Source: Candidatus Aenigmatarchaeota archaeon (GTDB lineage Archaea > Aenigmatarchaeota > Aenigmatarchaeia > CG10238-14 > SpSt-28). From it: a DNA stretch of 60,095 nt. Shown here piece by piece: positions 4,215 to 59,216 of this stretch (its first letter is position 1; every line of letters begins with the position of its first letter). The notes under the pieces were generated by a model that was given only the letters and a program-made list of their open reading frames with translations, did no database searches and was not told where the DNA came from. The stretch lies in contig JBMFIJ010000001.1 of assembly GCA_049976365.1 (NCBI GenBank), positions 1-60,095 on the forward strand, in the 5' to 3' direction. The translations under genes were made by a program, and so were the position numbers.

Positions 4215-4547
4215 TTTGTTAGATTTCCGGCCACCCTTGGGCTGTTGGGAGTGGCAGGCTCGCAGCTCGCCCGAAGGCTCGCTGCATACACCTCCACCCC
4301 ATCAACGCCATCGTCTATGGCAGCCCTCGTCTCTCTACCGGGTTTCCCCAGTAGAGAGATTGGCCGTCTATTTTTCCGGGTGGTTTCCCCCTTAGATGCT
4401 TTCAGGGGTTATCCACTGGGGCGTGGCTGCCCGGCATGCCAAATGGACAACCGGTAAACCAGAGGCCCCGGAAGCGCGTTCCTTTCGTACTTGCGCTTCC
4501 TTCCGGTCAGACGGCTAGCACTCCCGGTAGATAGCGACCGAACTGTC

Positions 4548-4671
4548 TCTATCGCCGCATACAAGAGAATACTATCTATTAGATGTTTTCGACCCAGCAA
4601 CGATAGCTATTTCATCCTTTTGGCAAGATATAAATGCCAAAATGTCTATAGCAAGTGACCCTTGTATGCGG
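4548..4671 (-). other. About 124-nt insertion in 23S at the I-CreI/L2593 site (intron-like, no ORF)
   Basis: The canonical GUCGUGA|GACAGUUCGG is split. The insert ends pair perfectly: CCGCAUACAAG with CUUGUAUGCGG (11 bp). Confidence 0.8.
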
Positions 4672-4800
4672 TCACGACGTTCTGAACCCAGCTAGCGTCC
4701 CCCTTTAACCAGTGGACACCTGTACCCTTGGCCACTGCTGCATGGCCAGGAGGGGGGGAGCCGACAGCTACGCACCAACGCGCCGGGTCAATTTGCCTGT

Positions 4801-4900
4801 CACTATCTGCAGGAAACGAGACCCACGCAGATAGCTTTACTGTGGGCTTTCACCGGCCACGGGCCCATTCTGGAGGATAGGCAAAAATCAAAAGCCTATC
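4801..4900 (-). other. 57-100-nt insertion in 23S at the GGGGAUA|ACAG peptidyl-transferase site (I-SceI/L2449 position); boundary ambiguous
   Basis: GGGGAUA (4901-4907) is separated from ACAGGC (4795-4800) by 100 nt. A second ACAG at 4840-4843 gives an alternative 57-nt insert (4844-4900). The insert contains the hairpin GAUAGGC-UUUUGAUUUUU-GCCUAUC. Confidence 0.6.
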
Positions 4901-5044
4901 TATCCCCGAGGTAGCTTTTCTGATACCACCGGCCCCCATTAAGGGGTACCGATGTATCGCTAACCCACGCTTTCGCGGCTGGAACCCTCGCTTTGTGGGT
5001 TCCAGTCAGCCCACCTTTTGCGTTTGCACTCTACCCCGGATTTC

Positions 5045-5132
5045 TTTCGGGTGAAGATTCTCTTACTATCAAAAGCTACCCCGCTAATCATTTGGTCATT
5101 CGGGAGCGACCTTATCATCTAGAGAATCTTCA
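5045..5132 (-). other. About 88-nt insertion inside the conserved GGGUCA-GAAAUCC hairpin loop of 23S domain V
   Basis: A perfect 12-bp closing stem, UGAAGAUUCUCU/AGAGAAUCUUCA (5121-5132 with 5052-5063), interrupts CCCGGGUCA...GAAAUCCGGGG. Confidence 0.7.
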
Positions 5133-5360
5133 TGACCCGGGTGAGGTGAGCTTTGGGCCCCCTCGATATCTTTTCGAGGGGGTGCCGCCCCAGCCGAACT
5201 GCCCATCTAGCGCTGTCCCCTCTTCGGGTAAGCTGTAAAGTCCCAGAAGGCTGGTGTTACACTTGCCCCTCGGCTTCGGCCGAAGCCTACGCCTGATAGC
5301 GGGTCCCAGCTACTCTATGCAACCAGGACTTTACAGCAACGCCAGACTGCAGTAAAGCTC

Positions 5361-5398
5361 TCCGCTAGAAGGAATTAATGATTAATTCCTTCTATCTA
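5361..5398 (-). other. About 35-nt hairpin insertion in 23S after GACCCCGU (near E. coli 2068)
   Basis: The near-perfect palindrome AGAAGGAAUUAAUCAUUAAUUCCUUCU (5367-5393) sits between GACCCCGU and GAGCUUUACUGCAG, which are contiguous in canonical LSU rRNA. Confidence 0.65.
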
Positions 5399-5540
5399 CG
5401 GGGTCTACGTTTCCCACCGGGAGTCTCCGGCCTATTCACCGGAAAGCCGAGTTCGCTGGGTCCCTCCCCGGGACAGCGCCCAGGTCGTTAAGCTGTTCAA
5501 CCGGCCGCCATTTAAGCGGCAAGGGATTACGCTACTTCTG

Positions 5541-5618
5541 TCGCCCAAGGCGGCGTCTAGGCTTTCATAGCTATTTCTGTAAGTCAGAAGCTCTAGCTCA
5601 AATGACCGCCTGAGATAC
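5541..5618 (-). other. About 78-nt insertion in 23S at the I-CeuI/L1923 site (intron-like, no ORF)
   Basis: The canonical GUAACUCUGACCGUC|CUAAGGUAGCG reads GUAACUCUGACCGUC-[insert]-CAGAAGUAGCGUAAUCCCUUG. The insert ends (CAGGCGGUC ... GACGCCGCCUUG) can pair. Confidence 0.7.
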
Positions 5619-5746
5619 GACGGTCAGAGTTACCGCCGCCGCTCTGCGGGGCTTAGCCCGGTTGTAACCGGGTTTCACACACCGCAGCTGGGCAAACCTC
5701 AGGGACTGTACTCATCCTTTCGGACTAGCAGTCCCCTGCGTTTTTT

Positions 5747-5847
5747 AACCTGGGAAGAAAGGATATGATAGACTTTTTGGTAAGTTTGTAAATTGAACAT
5801 TTTTCCCAAACTATACCATTTAATACTTAAAATTTCCTCTCTTCCCG
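5747..5847 (-). other. About 100-nt AT-rich insertion in 23S after GACUGUUUAACAAAC (near E. coli 1785)
   Basis: Closing stem GGGAAGAGAGGA/UCCUUUCUUCCC (5835-5846 with 5752-5763). The canonical sequence continues AAAAACGCAGG immediately after the insert. Confidence 0.7.
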
Positions 5848-7243
5848 TTTGTTAAACAGTCGCCTGGGCCTTGTCACTGCGACCTGCAGTCCCTTCTATC
5901 CCTTGCCTTCTAAAGAAGGCTTAGGATAGTCAGGACTACAGGCACCCCTTCTAGCGAACATACGGGGCCAACTTGCCGATTTCCCTGGGGAGGGTTCTCC
6001 CAACACGCCGTTCCCTTCTCAGGAAGCCCACCTGTGCCGGTTCTCGGTACGGTCTAGGGGAATCCTTGTGGATTGCCTTTTCACGGGCTCCAAGAATCGG
6101 CCGAACTCCCTTACGGGAGCCCATCCTGCCTTCAGCTCCTTCTCCTCATTACGAGACTCCGGAGCCTTCGGCAGTTAGCTTGCGTCGGCCTATCTCGAAG
6201 CGTCGGCAATCCACCTTGCCTCGCGGCACGTATCCCCTAGGTTCCGGAATATTAACCGGATTCCCTTTCTCGGGTTCGCCGATTAAGGGAACCCTTAGGA
6301 CCGACTAACTGCCGGCTGACGAACATTGCCGGCAAACCCTTGGGCTTCAGGCGGCTGGGATTCTCACCCAGCTCGGCTGCTACTTTCGGCGGGATCTGCA
6401 TTACTGTGTGGTCCATGGGAGTTCACACCCCCACTTCTACCCACACAGTACGCCCCCCTACCATCTCTTATCGAGATCTGGGGTATCGGCAGTCGGCTTA
6501 GTCCCTTCCATCTTCAGGGCACAAACCCTCGGCGGGTAAGTTGTTGTACACTTCTTAGCTGATGGCTACTTTTAGGCCCACAGCCCCGCTGTCTAAGGGT
6601 TTGTACCCCTTCTTCGTTTAGCCGACATTTAGGGGCCTTAACCCCAGTCTGGGTTGTTCCCCTCACGAGTGCCGAGCTTACCCCAGCACTCATTTTCCCA
6701 CCTTCTACGAGGCTGGCGGATTCGGAGTTTGACAGAGTGGCTGAGCCTTTCGGCCCTTGACCACTCGATCAGTAACTCTACCCCACCAGCACTCTCAGGT
6801 GAGACTGCTCTGCGGAGCATATCGGGGGGAACCGGCTATGAGGCCGCTCGATTGGCTTTTCACCCCTAATCCTGGCTCACGAGAGGGATTGGCATCTCAC
6901 CACCTCTATCGGGCCTCCACCTCCCTTTCGGGAGGCTTCACCCTGGCCAGGATTAGATCGCGGCCCTTCCGGTTGTAGGCGAGTGACTTCAGGCGCTTTC
7001 ACACCCCGCGCCTCACTTGGTTTTAACCAAGTTGCGCGCGAGTCGCTTTCGCTACGGCTTCGGGGTTTAACCCCTTAACCTCGCCACTCACCTACACTCC
7101 CCGCCCCGTTTTTCCAAACGGACGTCAGGACGGTGTTAGTCGTCTCTCGCTTTTTAGCTTCAAGACGACATCTTTCCCGCCCTGACAGACTATAACCGCT
7201 TGGTTTCAGGCTCTTTTCACCCCGCTTTCGCGGTGCTTTTCAG

Positions 7244-7344
7244 CTTTCCAGGCGGTTAGCCGAGTAAAAGGATTAAGTTTAAATAAAAAATTCCAGCTTT
7301 TCCTGATTGAATCATTTTATTACATATATGCCTTCGACTAACCG
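7244..7344 (-). other. About 101-nt AT-rich insertion in 23S domain I (between GGAAAG and CUGAAAAGCACC)
   Basis: The canonical GUACCGUGAGGGAAAGCUGAAAAGCACC is split. The insert is bounded by the direct repeat GGAAAG and closed by GCGGUUAGUCGA/UCGGCUAACCGC. Confidence 0.7.
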
Positions 7345-7867
7345 CTTTCCGTCACCGTACTAGTACGCTATCGGACTCTGGGTGTGTTTAGGGTTGGATG
7401 TTAATGCCACCCAGCTTCCCACTCCCAAATCAGGGAATGGTACTCAGGAGACCTGGAATTTCCCTTCTCCCCTTCCCCTACGGGACTATCACCCTCTATG
7501 GTAGGGCATTCCAGCCCACTTCGGGTCGAGGAGTTAGGGAATACCCAGGTCCTACAACTCCACATTCCAGTTAGCTTTTCGCCAACCGGTTCGGTTTGCC
7601 CTTTGCCGGTTTCGGTCGCCCCTACTCCCGGCATCTCATTTGATTTCTCTTCCTGCGGGTACTGAGATGCTTCACTTCCCCGCGTCCCCCTTCCAGGTCT
7701 TTAAGACCTGGAATGCCTCTAAACGAGGCAGGATTCCCATTCGGAAATCCCGGGGTCTAAGGCCGCGTGCGCCTAACCCGGGCCTATCGTGGCTTGCCAC
7801 GTCCTTCTTCGGCCCCAGAGCCGAGCCATCCACCAAGCGGCGTAGCAGTGGCCGGAAACCCCTTAAC

Positions 7868-15126: not shown

Positions 15127-15378
15127 GGTGTGCCTGCCATAACCCACCTTCTGTTCAGGGCAGCATTCGTCTAAGCGCCTTAAAGGCTTGCATCTCATCG
15201 ATTGTGTAGGTCCGTTTCACCCTTTTGTAAGCAACTCATATTTTAATCATCGTTATCGCTTACAAAAGGTCTCGTTTCTGATACCTACACAGGGCTTCTC
15301 AGCCCTTTTAATCTCGATGGGTGGAATTTCCTCACCCTTGCTTTTGGGCAAGGGCGAAGCTGCCCAGCAGGCTCACCC
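15126..15378 (-). ncRNA. rnpB: RNase P RNA (compact, about 253 nt, type A-like)
   Basis: The reverse strand reads:
- P1: GGGUGAGCCUGC, pairing with GCAGGCACACCC at the 3' end.
- P2: GGGCAGC/GCUGCCC.
- CR-I: GAGGAAAUUCCACC.
- CR-II/III: AGGGUGAAACGGAC.
- CR-V: ACAGAAGGUGGGUUAUGG.
The region is a GC-rich island. Confidence 0.85.
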
Positions 15379-32931: not shown

Positions 32932-32984
32932 GGTGAATAGGATTTAGCAATCAGTATCTACAACTCAAAAGGCTAATTAAAGAA

Positions 32985-34553
32985 TTGGAAAAAATAAAAG
33001 GGAGACATACAGAGTTGGTTTCAGTCTATATTCCTGCTGGCTACAATTTGTATGAAATGATAAATCAGCTTATTCAGGAAAAGTCTACAGCAGAAAACAT
33101 AAAAAGCAAATCTACAAGAAAAAATGTAATTTCTGCTCTAGAAAAAATTATTCAATACTTAAGGTTATTCAAGCAAACTCCTCCAAACGGTTTAGCAGTT
33201 TTTGCTGGGAATGTTTCTGAATTCGAAGGAAAAGAAGATATAAGACTTTGGGCTATAGAGCCGCCAGAGAAACTCGAAACTAAAATTTATTGGTGCGATC
33301 AAGTTTTTGTTTTAGATCCGCTAAAAGAAATGGTAAAGGAAAAAGATGTTTATGGATTAATAGTTTTAGATGCTAGAGAGGCTACTATTGGACTTTTAAA
33401 AGGTAAGAAAATAATTGTTAAAAAAAGATTGGATTCTACAGTTCCAAGCAAAACAGTTAAAGGAGGAATGTGTTTACATAGATCAACCCTAATAACTTTA
33501 TCTAATGGCCAAAAAATACCAATAAATAAAATAAAGAAAGGAGATGAAGTTTTGTGTTTTGATTTTACTGAAAATAAAATAAAGACAGGAATAGTGAAGG
33601 AAATTTATAAGAGAAAGGTTGAAAAAGCTAAAAAAATATTTTATGAGAGAAACAGTTTGATAGTCAGTGAAGATCATTTACTGTTTGTTAAAGAAAATGA
33701 GATTAAAGAAAAGCCAGTTAGAGAAATCAAAAGACAAGAAGTGGTTTTTGTTTTGGATAATGAAGTAAAAGAAGTGCAAATTAAAAATTTGAGTGAGGTT
33801 TCTGTAGAAGCTTCTATATTCTTCTATGATTTAGAAGTCTATCCTTTTGGAAACTATTTCGCAAATGATTTGCTTGTGCATAATTCGCAAGGTAGATATG
33901 ATAGGCTTAGAGAAGATGCAATAAATGAATTTTTAACCAAAGTTGGAGAAGTAGCATCTAATATATTTCTAGAAGAAAACGTCCTAGGTGTTTTAATAGG
34001 AGGTCCAGGCCCAGTTAAAGAAAGACTAGCTAAGGAAGATTATCTTAACTATCAGATTAAAAAGAAAATACTCGGAATAAAAGATATAGGTTATGCAGAT
34101 GAATATGGGCTTGAAGAACTAGTAAAAAGGTCAGAGGATTTGTTACAACAAGCAGAGATATTTAGAGAGAAAAATTTGCTTAACAAATTTTTTGTAACTC
34201 TACGAGATAAAGGAAATGCAGTTGTAGGGTTAGATAATGTAATTAAGGCTTTAGAAATGGGGGCAGTAGAAGAAATTATTATTGTTGAAAACTTTGATTA
34301 TGTTAGAAAGTACTTGATTTGTGAAAATGGTCATACGAAAACTGTTATATCTAAAAGAGATGAAAAAATATTTTGTGATGTTTGCGGGAAAGAAATGAAA
34401 GTTGAAAAGGAAGAGGAAATTTACGATGAAATAATTGATAAAGCAGAAAGTATAGGAATAAAAGTGAATATAGTTTCTGATGAGACAGAAGAAGGTAAGG
34501 GACTTAAAAGTATGGGCGGGATAGGAGCATTTTTGCGTTTCAAGATAGATTAG
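32985..34553 (+). CDS. prf1: Peptide chain release factor aRF1, interrupted by a mini-intein; the true start is probably upstream of 32985
   Basis: NIKS motif (TAENIKSKSTRKNV), YxCxxxF (YWCDQVF), the GG..SQGRYDRLRED middle domain and a C-terminal zinc-ribbon mini-domain. 522 aa versus about 385 after intein removal. Confidence 0.9.
   Translation: MEKIKGRHTELVSVYIPAGYNLYEMINQLIQEKSTAENIKSKSTRKNVISALEKIIQYLRLFKQTPPNGLAVFAGNVSEFEGKEDIRLWAIEPPEKLETKIYWCDQVFVLDPLKEMVKEKDVYGLIVLDAREATIGLLKGKKIIVKKRLDSTVPSKTVKGGMCLHRSTLITLSNGQKIPINKIKKGDEVLCFDFTENKIKTGIVKEIYKRKVEKAKKIFYERNSLIVSEDHLLFVKENEIKEKPVREIKRQEVVFVLDNEVKEVQIKNLSEVSVEASIFFYDLEVYPFGNYFANDLLVHNSQGRYDRLREDAINEFLTKVGEVASNIFLEENVLGVLIGGPGPVKERLAKEDYLNYQIKKKILGIKDIGYADEYGLEELVKRSEDLLQQAEIFREKNLLNKFFVTLRDKGNAVVGLDNVIKALEMGAVEEIIIVENFDYVRKYLICENGHTKTVISKRDEKIFCDVCGKEMKVEKEEEIYDEIIDKAESIGIKVNIVSDETEEGKGLKSMGGIGAFLRFKID
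33471..33884 (+). mobile_element. Mini-intein (138 aa, no endonuclease domain) inserted at the GGQ loop of aRF1
   Basis: Block A CLHRSTLITLSNG, block B SEDHLLF, block F FFYDLEVYPFGNYFAN, block G DLLVHN followed by +1 Ser. The flanking exteins align contiguously to aRF1. Confidence 0.85.
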
Positions 34554-58852: not shown

Positions 58853-59067
58853 TATCCTCTTTAGCTTTAACTTTTCAAATATATGTCTTTTTTTATCGAA
58901 AACCAAAGGCTGAGAAAAGAAGAGCTCTCAGAAAAACTTAAAAATCTTCTATGTAAGCTCTATATTCTTACTCAGTTTTGGAAGCCACAATGTTTGAAAA
59001 TGTAATAAATAAAATTTTACTGCAATTCTCCATTTTTTATTTTTCTATTTAAAGGCTCTATTAAAAA

Positions 59068-59152
59068 CGCTGGGGGCGGGATTTGAACCCGCAAGGGGAT
59101 AAACCCCACAGGCTTAGCAGACCTGCGCCCTACCAGGTTAGGCGACCCCAGC
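59068..59152 (-). tRNA. tRNA-Ser (anticodon GCU), class II with a long variable arm; no encoded CCA
   Basis: The reverse strand folds as follows:
- Acceptor: GCTGGGG/CCCCAGC.
- D arm: GCCT-AACCTGGTA-GGGC.
- Anticodon arm: CAGGT-CTGCTAA-GCCTG.
- Variable arm: TGGGGTTTATCCCCTT.
- T arm: GCGGG-TTCAAAT-CCCGC. Confidence 0.9.
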
Positions 59153-59216
59153 ATCCAATTAAAATTTACTTTTAGAATTCTTTAAATATTAGAAAAATAA
59201 AGTTAAAAATGGAGGA

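Follow-up and report, generated by a model that had tools for sequence, protein, structure and literature searches.

In the 60,095-nt stretch of DNA analysed here (the window), which comes from an archaeon of the DPANN lineage Aenigmatarchaeota, the gene of the archaeal class I release factor aRF1 is about 138 codons too long, and the extra block lies in the peptide-release loop. The locus raises two questions, namely what this block is and what kind of loop surrounds it. Concerning the first, the insert is very likely a canonical class 1 mini-intein that self-excises from aRF1 and that derives from an intein with a LAGLIDADG endonuclease. Inteins of this kind are ordinary, being common at the same site in related archaea. 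The loss of the glutamine of the GGQ motif from the host protein is the more novel and the more consequential lead of the two.

The open reading frame is intact and encodes 522 aa. It scores 418.9 bits against the NCBIfam equivalog TIGR03676 (aRF1_eRF1; cutoff 234.7), and Pfam detects eRF1_1 (56.6 bits), eRF1_3 (84.5 bits) and eRF1_2, the last being split into two stretches by the insert. The three eRF1 domains, the NIKS motif and the YxCxxxF motif are therefore all present in this member of the aRF1 equivalog, and the GGQ tripeptide is absent. The coordinates that the initial annotation had given for the supernumerary block proved exact. Once the block is removed, the 384-aa protein aligns end to end with solved aRF1 and eRF1 (4af1, E 6e-70; human eRF1, E 3e-58), and the HMMER alignments with both show no gap across the junction. 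The listed start codon is TTG while a near-identical NCBI homologue, annotated merely as 'hypothetical protein', begins at ATT 32976; the true start is probably upstream of the TTG. The closest homologue comes from a near-identical strain (L081) that differs by 3 nt in the aRF1 gene and by none in the intein, too little to reveal selection. No second aRF1 gene was found in the window, the rest of the genome (a MAG) being able to hold another release factor, and no species genome supplied two of the best 80 aRF1 loci. The features of the locus are collected in Table 1.

Table 1. Coordinates of the aRF1 gene of the window, of its mini-intein and of their motifs (positions in the 60,095-nt window)
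Feature	Position	Strand	Basis or remark
aRF1 precursor gene (N-extein, mini-intein, C-extein)	32985..34553	+	TAG stop 34551-34553; TIGR03676, Pfam eRF1_1/2/3
N-extein: aRF1 domain N and first half of domain M, ending ...KGGM	32985..33470	+	
NIKS stop-codon recognition motif	33096..33107	+	Aligned with NIKS of 4af1 and human eRF1
YxCxxxF motif (YWCDQVF)	33288..33308	+	Second intein insertion site in other archaeal aRF1s
Gly-Gly-Met, positional equivalent of GGQ	33462..33470	+	Ungapped alignment with 4af1 and human eRF1; Met is intein position -1
Class 1 mini-intein, 138 aa, HINT domain only	33471..33884	+	Motifs, profiles, fold
Block A (CLHRSTLITLSNG)	33471..33509	+	Cys1 (33471-33473), first nucleophile
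Block B (NSLIVSEDHLLFV)	33651..33689	+	[T/S]xxH is SEDH (33666-33677); His69 33675-33677
Endonuclease-domain position, intein residues 111/112	33801..33806	+	354-column insertion here in the MAFFT alignment of 88 inteins
Block F (IFFYDLEVYPFGNYFAN)	33816..33866	+	Asp120 33828-33830
Block G (DLLVHN)	33867..33884	+	His137-Asn138 33879-33884
Ser+1, then Gln+2	33885..33890	+	Ser+1 (33885-33887), second nucleophile, native aRF1 residue
C-extein: second part of domain M, then domain C with a Cys4 zinc-ribbon insert	33885..34550	+	

The insert (CLHRS...LLVHN, residues 163-300 of the ORF) comprises 414 nt, i.e., 138 codons in frame, and directly follows the residue homologous to eRF1 Gln185, at the tip of the peptide-release loop. 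All the motifs by which it had been recognized from the sequence, namely Cys1, SEDH, FFYDLEVYPFGNYFAN and LLVHN/S (the slash marking the junction), were found again. Although the 88 inteins compared are just 30-73% identical, Cys1, His69, Phe118, Asp120, His137 and Asn138 are invariant among them. Cys1 is found in 88/88 sequences of the MAFFT alignment and in 156/156 aligned homologues, His137 and Asn138 in 88/88, and Ser+1 in 158/158 inteins inserted at the same site. In block B, Phe72 is near-invariant and position 66 is either Thr (48 sequences), as is usual in inteins, or Ser (40), as in the window copy, whereas in block F, Ala131 and Asn132 are near-invariant. The conservation of blocks F and G relies on the MAFFT alignment of the 88 inteins, hmmalign of full-length inteins to the mini-intein HMM having aligned the C-terminal blocks in only about 70 sequences. 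The agreement of the insert with intein motifs is far above chance. Its 138 aa match neither PF14528 nor any other nuclease of Pfam, and LAGLIDADG motifs are absent from them. Thus the earlier description as a class 1 intein without endonuclease domain is borne out by the invariant residues, by the lack of a nuclease match and by the HINT fold of the AF2 model described below.

The initial annotation had proposed to search the insert with intein profiles, and this search gave a mixed answer. Pfam Hint reaches 30.2 bits on the whole protein (GA 29.7) and 28.3 on the insert alone. Pfam Intein_splicing gives an E-value of 1e-8 on the insert but, at 35.6 for a cutoff of 35.8, falls 0.2 bits short. 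The NCBIfam models intein_Nterm TIGR01445 (20.1 versus 24.5) and intein_Cterm TIGR01443 (13.6 versus 15.6) also remain under their cutoffs. Since the curated profiles are borderline or sub-threshold, profile searches by themselves would leave the identity of the insert inconclusive. Using phmmer, the insert alone matches solved inteins and Hint domains, including Pho RadA, PolB, CDC21 and gp41-1, with E-values from 2e-8 to 5e-4. Its AF2 model (pLDDT 97.1, pTM 0.90) retrieves solved mini-inteins by Foldseek (E 2e-11, TM 0.87), NpuDnaB, the Ssp DnaB mini-intein, PhoCDC21-1, TvoVMA and a hedgehog Hint domain all lying at TM 0.86-0.88. The best PDB match in both sequence and fold is not a classical intein; it is the BIL2 domain of Tetrahymena BUBL (6y75/6tmm, E 2e-8, TM 0.87). 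A mini-intein HMM run against all six-frame ORFs of the window detects the aRF1 copy only. In the same way, Pfam reveals no Hint domain in the ten ORFs that are largest or lie close by (among them SMC, MCM, thermosome, GatD/E and Cbf5), and the over-long 23S rRNA of the window has no Rfam match to a group I intron.

The survey of relatives, which had been suggested as a search for intein-free alleles, did recover them. Among the best 120 homologues, 33 are intein-free at the identical site, 50 carry a mini-intein, four an intermediate form and 33 a full-length intein; the 33 intein-free alleles are contiguous at the junction (...KGGMSQ.RYDR...). The 138 residues are thus not a conserved non-splicing domain of aRF1, the alternative contemplated at first: orthologues are patchy for them, and intein-free, mini and LAGLIDADG-bearing alleles share one junction. 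Altogether, 158 inteins were gathered at this site, of which 83 have a LAGLIDADG endonuclease, 69 are minis and 6 are intermediate in form. The labels of their hosts are Aenigmatarchaeota, Micrarchaeota, Woese-, Pace- and Nanoarchaeota. In full-length relatives, a LAGLIDADG homing-endonuclease domain of about 270-350 aa lies between residues 111 and 112, and the alignment marks the corresponding position of the window intein as a putative endonuclease deletion scar. Full-length relatives carry PF14528, and in P0053 and P0085 both LAGLIDADG motifs are present with their acidic residues. The window intein falls in a cluster of 33 sequences, all minis, 62-73% identical, which tracks the hosts, whereas the remaining clusters mix mini and full-length inteins. 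It is at most 47% identical to any sequence outside its own cluster.

In public DPANN genomes and metagenomes, proteins labelled 'peptide subunit release factor 1 (eRF1)/intein/homing endonuclease' by JGI, such as P0039 and P0056, have their intein at the GGx/S site, like the window copy, and so does Ca. Fermentimicrarchaeum limneticum (CP058998.1, locus L049), whose intein reaches 577 aa. The public DPANN inteins of this site and the window copy alike show Cys1...His-Asn/Ser and homologous splicing blocks. However, many of the public inteins are endonuclease-bearing (LAGLIDADG, 408-627 aa), and canonical GGQ hosts harbour the majority of the public ones, whereas the window copy is a 138-aa mini-intein in a GGM host.

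Given its residues and its modelled fold, the mini-intein is probably active in splicing. Translation would yield a precursor of 522-525 aa in which the 138-aa HINT domain occupies the tip of domain M's peptide-release loop. Splicing would begin by an N-S acyl shift at Cys1, assisted by Ser66 and His69 of block B, after which the hydroxyl of Ser+1 would receive the N-extein. Cyclisation of Asn138, assisted by His137 and Asp120, would then release the intein, and an O-N shift would restore a normal Met-Ser peptide bond. The outcome would be a scarless aRF1 of about 384 aa with the loop KGGMSQGRYDRL. The proposed ancestor is an intein with a LAGLIDADG endonuclease that would have homed into the DNA encoding GGx/S of aRF1 and whose endonuclease domain would since have been lost. 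The present persistence of the mini-intein would reflect vertical descent, because its imprecise loss would wreck an essential gene. We infer that splicing happens and that the unspliced precursor is inactive; since splicing would then be needed for an active release factor, every termination event should depend on it.

The loop that receives the intein is itself unusual. The initial annotation had placed the insertion in the catalytic GGQ loop. The junction (KGGM/SQGRYDRL as encoded) and the peptide-release loop were correctly identified but Met stands opposite the catalytic Gln, and the loop reads GGM-SQ. Met occupies this position in 117 relatives forming one clade, intein-free alleles included. 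This loss of Gln, being common to intein-free alleles, is therefore not a decay of the window copy. Other sampled aRF1s, from DPANN-labelled and from unlabelled MAGs, have Trp, Phe, Ser or Ala instead, and these replacements would have arisen independently. The dipeptide SQ follows the M, W, F or A residue in 137/144 loops (95%; GGxSQ) versus 24/150 GGQ loops, while the three Ser forms of the loop have Ala downstream and no GGxSQ. In the window gene, the intein separates the x of this remodelled motif from its SQ.

This pattern makes Gln+2 a candidate relocated catalytic Gln of the GGxSQ loop. That the only canonical class I release factor of the lineage functions in the absence of the GGQ glutamine, which either moved along the loop or has a dispensable side chain, is a tentative proposal to which we give slightly less than an even chance. 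The remodelling of GGQ may be partly due to the pressure of the intein and its endonuclease on the coding DNA, or to effects of the -1 residue on splicing. Catalytic loops of the GGxSQ or GxuQ type are known from Vms1-like release factors, aVLRF-1 and acVLRF-1 (Burroughs & Aravind 2019, PMC6514570). The spliced loop, GG-M-S-Q, agrees with both patterns, GGxSQ as well as GxuQ, in which Ser takes the place of u (PMC6514570). However, the window protein is, unlike these factors, a classical three-domain aRF1 with NIKS, YxCxxxF and a C-terminal domain, and its loop has the canonical aRF1 length whereas those of VLRF-1 are longer (PMC6514570). An aVLRF-1 identity was rejected, since the protein has NIKS, the C-terminal domain and an aRF1 equivalog score, and acVLRF1 remains sub-threshold (23.7 bits with Pfam, 13.3 with NCBIfam). 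Stop-codon reassignment was also discarded as a cause of the odd loop: TAA, TGA and TAG all end long ORFs (22, 11 and 7, respectively). The Gln of GGQ is methylated by Mtq2-Trm112. Canonical aRF1s that lack it in whole lineages provide a natural experiment on the need for this Gln and for its methylation.

Three other readings of the insert have to be weighed. The first extends the self-excising mini-intein rather than replacing it: splicing could be tuned by temperature, redox or substrate, so that the intein would set post-translationally how much active release factor is available, with consequences for termination or readthrough. Such conditional behaviour is unlikely here, even if archaeal RadA inteins splice conditionally according to passages of three papers (PMC5790916, PMC5238726, PMC11409957). 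The mini form has been kept without endonuclease throughout the divergence of its 33-member cluster, in the catalytic loop of what is apparently the only aRF1, which would suit a regulatory role; the impossibility of an imprecise deletion in an essential loop explains this long retention equally well. Furthermore, no second Cys suited to a redox trap is conserved (just 17/88 inteins have one at position 29), and intein-free alleles are tolerated in the same lineages, which gives no evident sign of a dependence on the intein.

It is much less probable that the insert is a splicing-dead relic, i.e., a decayed intein that would leave either a pseudogene or a release factor from which the 138 aa are never removed. 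The sub-threshold intein HMMs, the bare NCBI label of the near-identical protein and the missing GGQ glutamine could be taken as signs of decay, but intein-free alleles also lack this Gln. The ORF is undamaged, the exteins retain NIKS, YxCxxxF and a 419-bit equivalog score, and the catalytic intein residues are all invariant in 88-158 diverged copies. Neither the window nor the sampled genomes show a second aRF1. Moreover, by the established structures of eRF1 on the ribosome, the loop must enter the peptidyl-transferase centre, and a 16-kDa domain on it is incompatible with function.

That the insert is a BIL or another Hint domain, which would only cleave or cross-link without ligating its flanks, is scarcely credible: BIL2 is indeed the closest PDB match in sequence and structure, but classical inteins rank narrowly behind it in the Foldseek search, the insert has the complete intein set with His-Asn and a Ser+1 native to the host, it interrupts a conserved catalytic-loop site of an essential protein (BIL domains are typically found in variable regions of non-essential proteins, usually without +1 nucleophile or ligation), and it has precise intein-free alleles as well as homologues with nested LAGLIDADG endonucleases (BIL domains are not known to carry a homing endonuclease).

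The self-excising mini-intein can be compared with known archaeal mini or minimised inteins, such as those of Pho RadA (4e2u/2lqm), Pho/Pab CDC21-1 (6rpq/6rpp), Mja/Mvu TFIIB (5o9i/5o9j) and TvoVMA (4o1s), which have the same HINT fold (TM 0.78-0.87). Like it, they have class 1 residues and lie within conserved functional sites of essential hosts that serve information processing. However, they are only 17-23% identical to it, and their hosts are replication, recombination or transcription proteins whereas that of the window is a translation termination factor. Among translation factors, the survey of Novikova et al. (2016) lists inteins in aIF2/IF2 (COG0532), an archaeal translation factor like aRF1, with a different host and a different site; its main text names no release factor among the hosts and reports that core transcription and translation components hold few inteins (PMC4760082). 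Full-text searches on release-factor inteins, DPANN/Aenigmarchaeota and GGQ variants gave no pertinent result on any of these subjects, and no publication on an aRF1 or eRF1 intein was found. The suggestion that the insertion site might be new thus holds for the literature searched but not for sequence databases, where such inteins are abundant and partly auto-annotated.

A class I release factor joins the list of intein hosts. Its inteins occupy two sites, GGx/S and a position inside YxCxxxF, both in a catalytic or decoding motif. Every stage of the homing cycle is present across several DPANN lineages, which makes aRF1 a natural system for the study of intein gain, endonuclease decay and fixation. 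The cutoffs of curated intein HMMs can miss this aRF1 intein family.

The aRF1 gene is one unbroken ORF of 522 aa in the ORF listing of the window, and its translation places the CLHRS...LLVHN block at residues 163-300, i.e., 414 nt or 138 codons, exactly at the coordinates proposed by the initial annotation. The listing contains no ORF of at least 80 aa on the strand opposite the insert. Pfam recognizes eRF1_1, eRF1_3 and an eRF1_2 domain cut into two stretches by the insert, and the protein reaches 418.9 bits with the NCBIfam aRF-1 equivalog (cutoff 234.7). In silico excision of the insert gives a product of 384 aa that aligns end to end with Halobacterium aRF1 (4af1, E 6e-70) and over its full length with human eRF1 (E 3e-58), the junction being ungapped in both alignments. 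The intein is slightly richer in AT than its exteins (27% versus 32% GC). At the 5' end, no ATG, GTG or TTG lies between the upstream in-frame TGA and the TTG that opens the ORF, and a conserved N-terminal helix (..LQLKRLIKELE..) is coded 5' of this first canonical start codon; for P0001 (NCBI ACP5H3_00095), the protein of a near-identical strain, NCBI places the start at an ATT. Gene callers disagree in this aRF1 clade, in which non-canonical starts or shortened N-termini seem to be common. TAA, TGA and TAG each close long ORFs in the window.

Coordinates of the aRF1 features and RNA genes in the window
Feature	Position	Strand	Remark
Archaeal 23S rRNA	4225-7857	-	3633 nt vs 2987-nt Rfam model
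Archaeal RNase P RNA	15128-15376	-	137.8 bits
In-frame TGA upstream of the ORF	32934-32936	+
Region 5' of and including first canonical start codon	32934-32987		codes conserved N-terminal helix
ATT start of P0001 (NCBI)	32976
aRF1 ORF	32985-34553	+	opens with TTG
YxCxxxF counterpart	33288-33308	+
GGM	33462-33470	+
Intein	33471-33884	+
Ser+1 codon	33885-33887
Ser+1-Gln	33885-33890	+
tRNA-Ser(GCT)	59067-59153	-	single

Taken on its sequence and predicted structure, the insert is best read as an ordinary class 1 mini-intein. Profile searches, proposed initially as a check, give a divided answer: the Pfam Hint match passes on the whole protein (30.2 bits, GA 29.7), whereas Intein_splicing on the insert alone falls 0.2 bits short (35.6, GA 35.8) and the NCBIfam models intein_Nterm (TIGR01445; 20.1, cutoff 24.5) and intein_Cterm (TIGR01443; 13.6, cutoff 15.6) also stay below threshold. 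Curated intein profiles thus miss the aRF1 intein family. Several aRF1 precursors are named ‘hypothetical protein’ or ‘LAGLIDADG family homing endonuclease’ by NCBI, and the sub-cutoff scores of the two NCBIfam models probably explain why P0001, which is 99% identical, bears the former name. The AlphaFold2 model of the insert, made with 24 homologues, is all-beta (mean pLDDT 97.1, pTM 0.90), and Foldseek retrieves HINT domains and nothing else from the PDB, among them NpuDnaB, PhoCDC21-1 and TvoVMA (TM 0.87 each), the Ssp DnaB mini-intein (0.85-0.88) and hedgehog Hint (0.87-0.88).

When 88 inserts at this site, which share only about 30-73% identity with the window copy, are aligned with MAFFT, Cys1, His69 (block B), Phe118 and Asp120 (block F), and His137 and Asn138 (block G) are invariant; at position 66 of block B, 48 inserts have Thr and 40 have Ser. 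The residue that follows the insert is Ser in every same-site case. The splicing motifs listed in the initial annotation are all present, and its class assignment holds since residue 1 is Cys; neither the Ala1 of class 2 nor the block F Cys of class 3 is present in the insert, which, as had also been proposed, has no nuclease-like sequence.

By sequence, the insert also matches solved Hint domains and inteins, namely Tetrahymena thermophila BIL2 from the BUBL1 locus (6y75, E 2e-8, 24% identity), Pho RadA (5e-4) and, more weakly, the PolB, CDC21 and gp41-1 inteins. BIL2 is the top solved structure by both sequence and fold and outranks every archaeal intein; this likeness may reflect either a shared AT-rich, Lys-Ile-Asn-rich composition or real relatedness.

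The window belongs to a Candidatus Aenigmatarchaeota MAG, and the near-identical strain GCA_049972275.1 differs at 3 nt in the gene and at none in the intein. Exactly the same junction holds an intein in 87 of the 120 best homologues: 50 are mini forms (133-161 aa), 4 are intermediate (303-384 aa) and 33 are full-length forms that contain a LAGLIDADG domain (PF14528; 408-493 aa). The other 33 homologues are intein-free (...KGGMSQxRYDR...), so that the intein-free alleles sought in related genomes do exist. MAFFT places the endonuclease domain found in the long forms between mini-intein residues 111 and 112, and these forms retain both LAGLIDADG motifs (e.g., LLGYIIGDA and FIRGLFDAEG in the homologue P0053). 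Furthermore, when 1.84 billion cluster representatives are searched exhaustively by HMMER, an intein-free allele being the query, about 60 of the best 150 bear an intein at this site, mostly in hosts with a canonical GGQ/C...HN/S junction. A scan of GTDB species genomes shows inteins at this site under the labels Aenigmatarchaeota, Micrarchaeota, Woesearchaeota, Pacearchaeota and Nanoarchaeota, as well as in Asbonarchaeaceae and the complete genome of Ca. Fermentimicrarchaeum limneticum.

The 158 pooled same-site inteins comprise 83 full-length, 69 mini and 6 intermediate forms. At 45% identity, the window intein falls in a 33-member cluster made only of mini forms, all in GGM hosts, while other clusters hold mini and full-length forms together, which points to repeated endonuclease loss. 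The allele spectrum is the classic picture of a homing cycle, the opposite of the conserved non-splicing domain that was the alternative initially considered.

In GGM alleles, the Ser+1 codon is TCN in 5/5 intein-bearing loci (the window, L001, L008, L009 and L017) versus AGC in 3/4 intein-free ones (L010, L014-L016), a very small sample. This split could reflect immunity of the homing-endonuclease target site; the pattern fails to hold in the GGW group.

From motifs, fold, junction and conservation, we infer that the window intein splices. An N-S shift at Cys1 would be followed by trans-esterification onto Ser+1, cyclisation of Asn138 and an O-N shift restoring the Met-Ser bond, leaving aRF1 scarless. 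The release loop has to reach the peptidyl-transferase centre, as known from eRF1-ribosome structures; the precursor is probably inactive because this loop carries a 16-kDa domain. No second aRF1 is found in the window, and no species genome has two aRF1 loci among the best 80 of at least 578 loci, so that translation termination probably depends on splicing. Conditional splicing, which would make the intein regulatory, is conceivable yet unsupported. Two further readings, a relic that no longer splices and a BIL-type domain, conflict both with the way the inserts are conserved and with the range of alleles observed.

The insertion does lie in the release loop, as initially proposed, but this loop is GGM-SQ and not GGQ. 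HMMER aligns ‘sktvkggMsqgrydrlr’ without gap to ‘gkqrkggQsaqrfarlr’ (4af1) and ‘kkhgrggQsalrfarlr’ (human eRF1), so that Met holds the Gln185 position. The GGM state extends beyond the intein-bearing copy, since 33/33 intein-free close homologues have it too. A rough NJ tree built from 297 exteins groups the 117 Met sequences in a single GGM clade, within which 3 Trp and 1 Phe are nested. The GGW sequences make up a main cluster, with other tips scattered, and GGF, GGS and GGA turn up sporadically amid the GGQ forms. The sampled Trp, Phe, Ser and Ala forms come mostly from DPANN-labelled MAGs (examples of GGQ loss: proteins P0074-P0120, P0123, P0151, P0161, P0172 and P0251; loci L010, L014-L016, L018, L020, L024, L026 and L028-L029). 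S-Q follows x in 137/144 M/W/F/A loops versus 24/150 GGQ loops, and S-A in the three GGS loops. Seven M/W sequences (GGMSA, GGMSS, GGWSA) have no Gln anywhere in the loop, and a simple displacement of Gln by two positions is thus an incomplete model.

The window loop shares the GG-x-S-Q motif of aVLRF-1/acVLRF-1, G-x-u-Q being the Vms1-type motif (Burroughs and Aravind, PMC6514570). Despite its non-GGQ loop, the window protein is a classical aRF1, in which the C-terminal domain is present as well as NIKS and YxCxxxF. The literature searched holds no account of Gln loss from GGQ in aRF1, and passages of current papers (e.g., PMC5799190, PMC7708063) still term GGQ universally conserved. Such a loss beside an intein would surprise a translation specialist and merits follow-up.

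Inteins, mini-inteins and their bias toward catalytic sites are well known. No intein in aRF1/eRF1 is described in the literature searched; the main text of the survey of Novikova et al. lists aIF2 and no release factor, and says that translation components hold few inteins. The aRF1 GGx/S site, initially suggested as new, is thus undescribed in that literature, yet not undiscovered, because the allele is abundant in sequence databases and partly labelled: the JGI pipeline tags some same-site copies ‘eRF1/intein/homing endonuclease’.

In some other archaeal aRF1s, a second intein splits YxCxxxF, the stop-codon recognition motif, between x and Cys; its junction is Y-x-(R or M)/C...HN/C-D-D-H-F, and a LAGLIDADG domain may be present or absent. 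This intein occurs alone in the proteins P0222, P0225 and P0232, and together with the GGQ-site intein in P0253 (1452 aa) and P0220 (1187 aa).

Elsewhere in the window, the 23S rRNA is about 650 nt longer than its Rfam model, with at least one insertion, of 102 nt, near model position 497; it has no group I intron match and no large ORF on the same strand. The only further RNA genes found across the 60 kb are those of RNase P RNA and tRNA-Ser(GCT).
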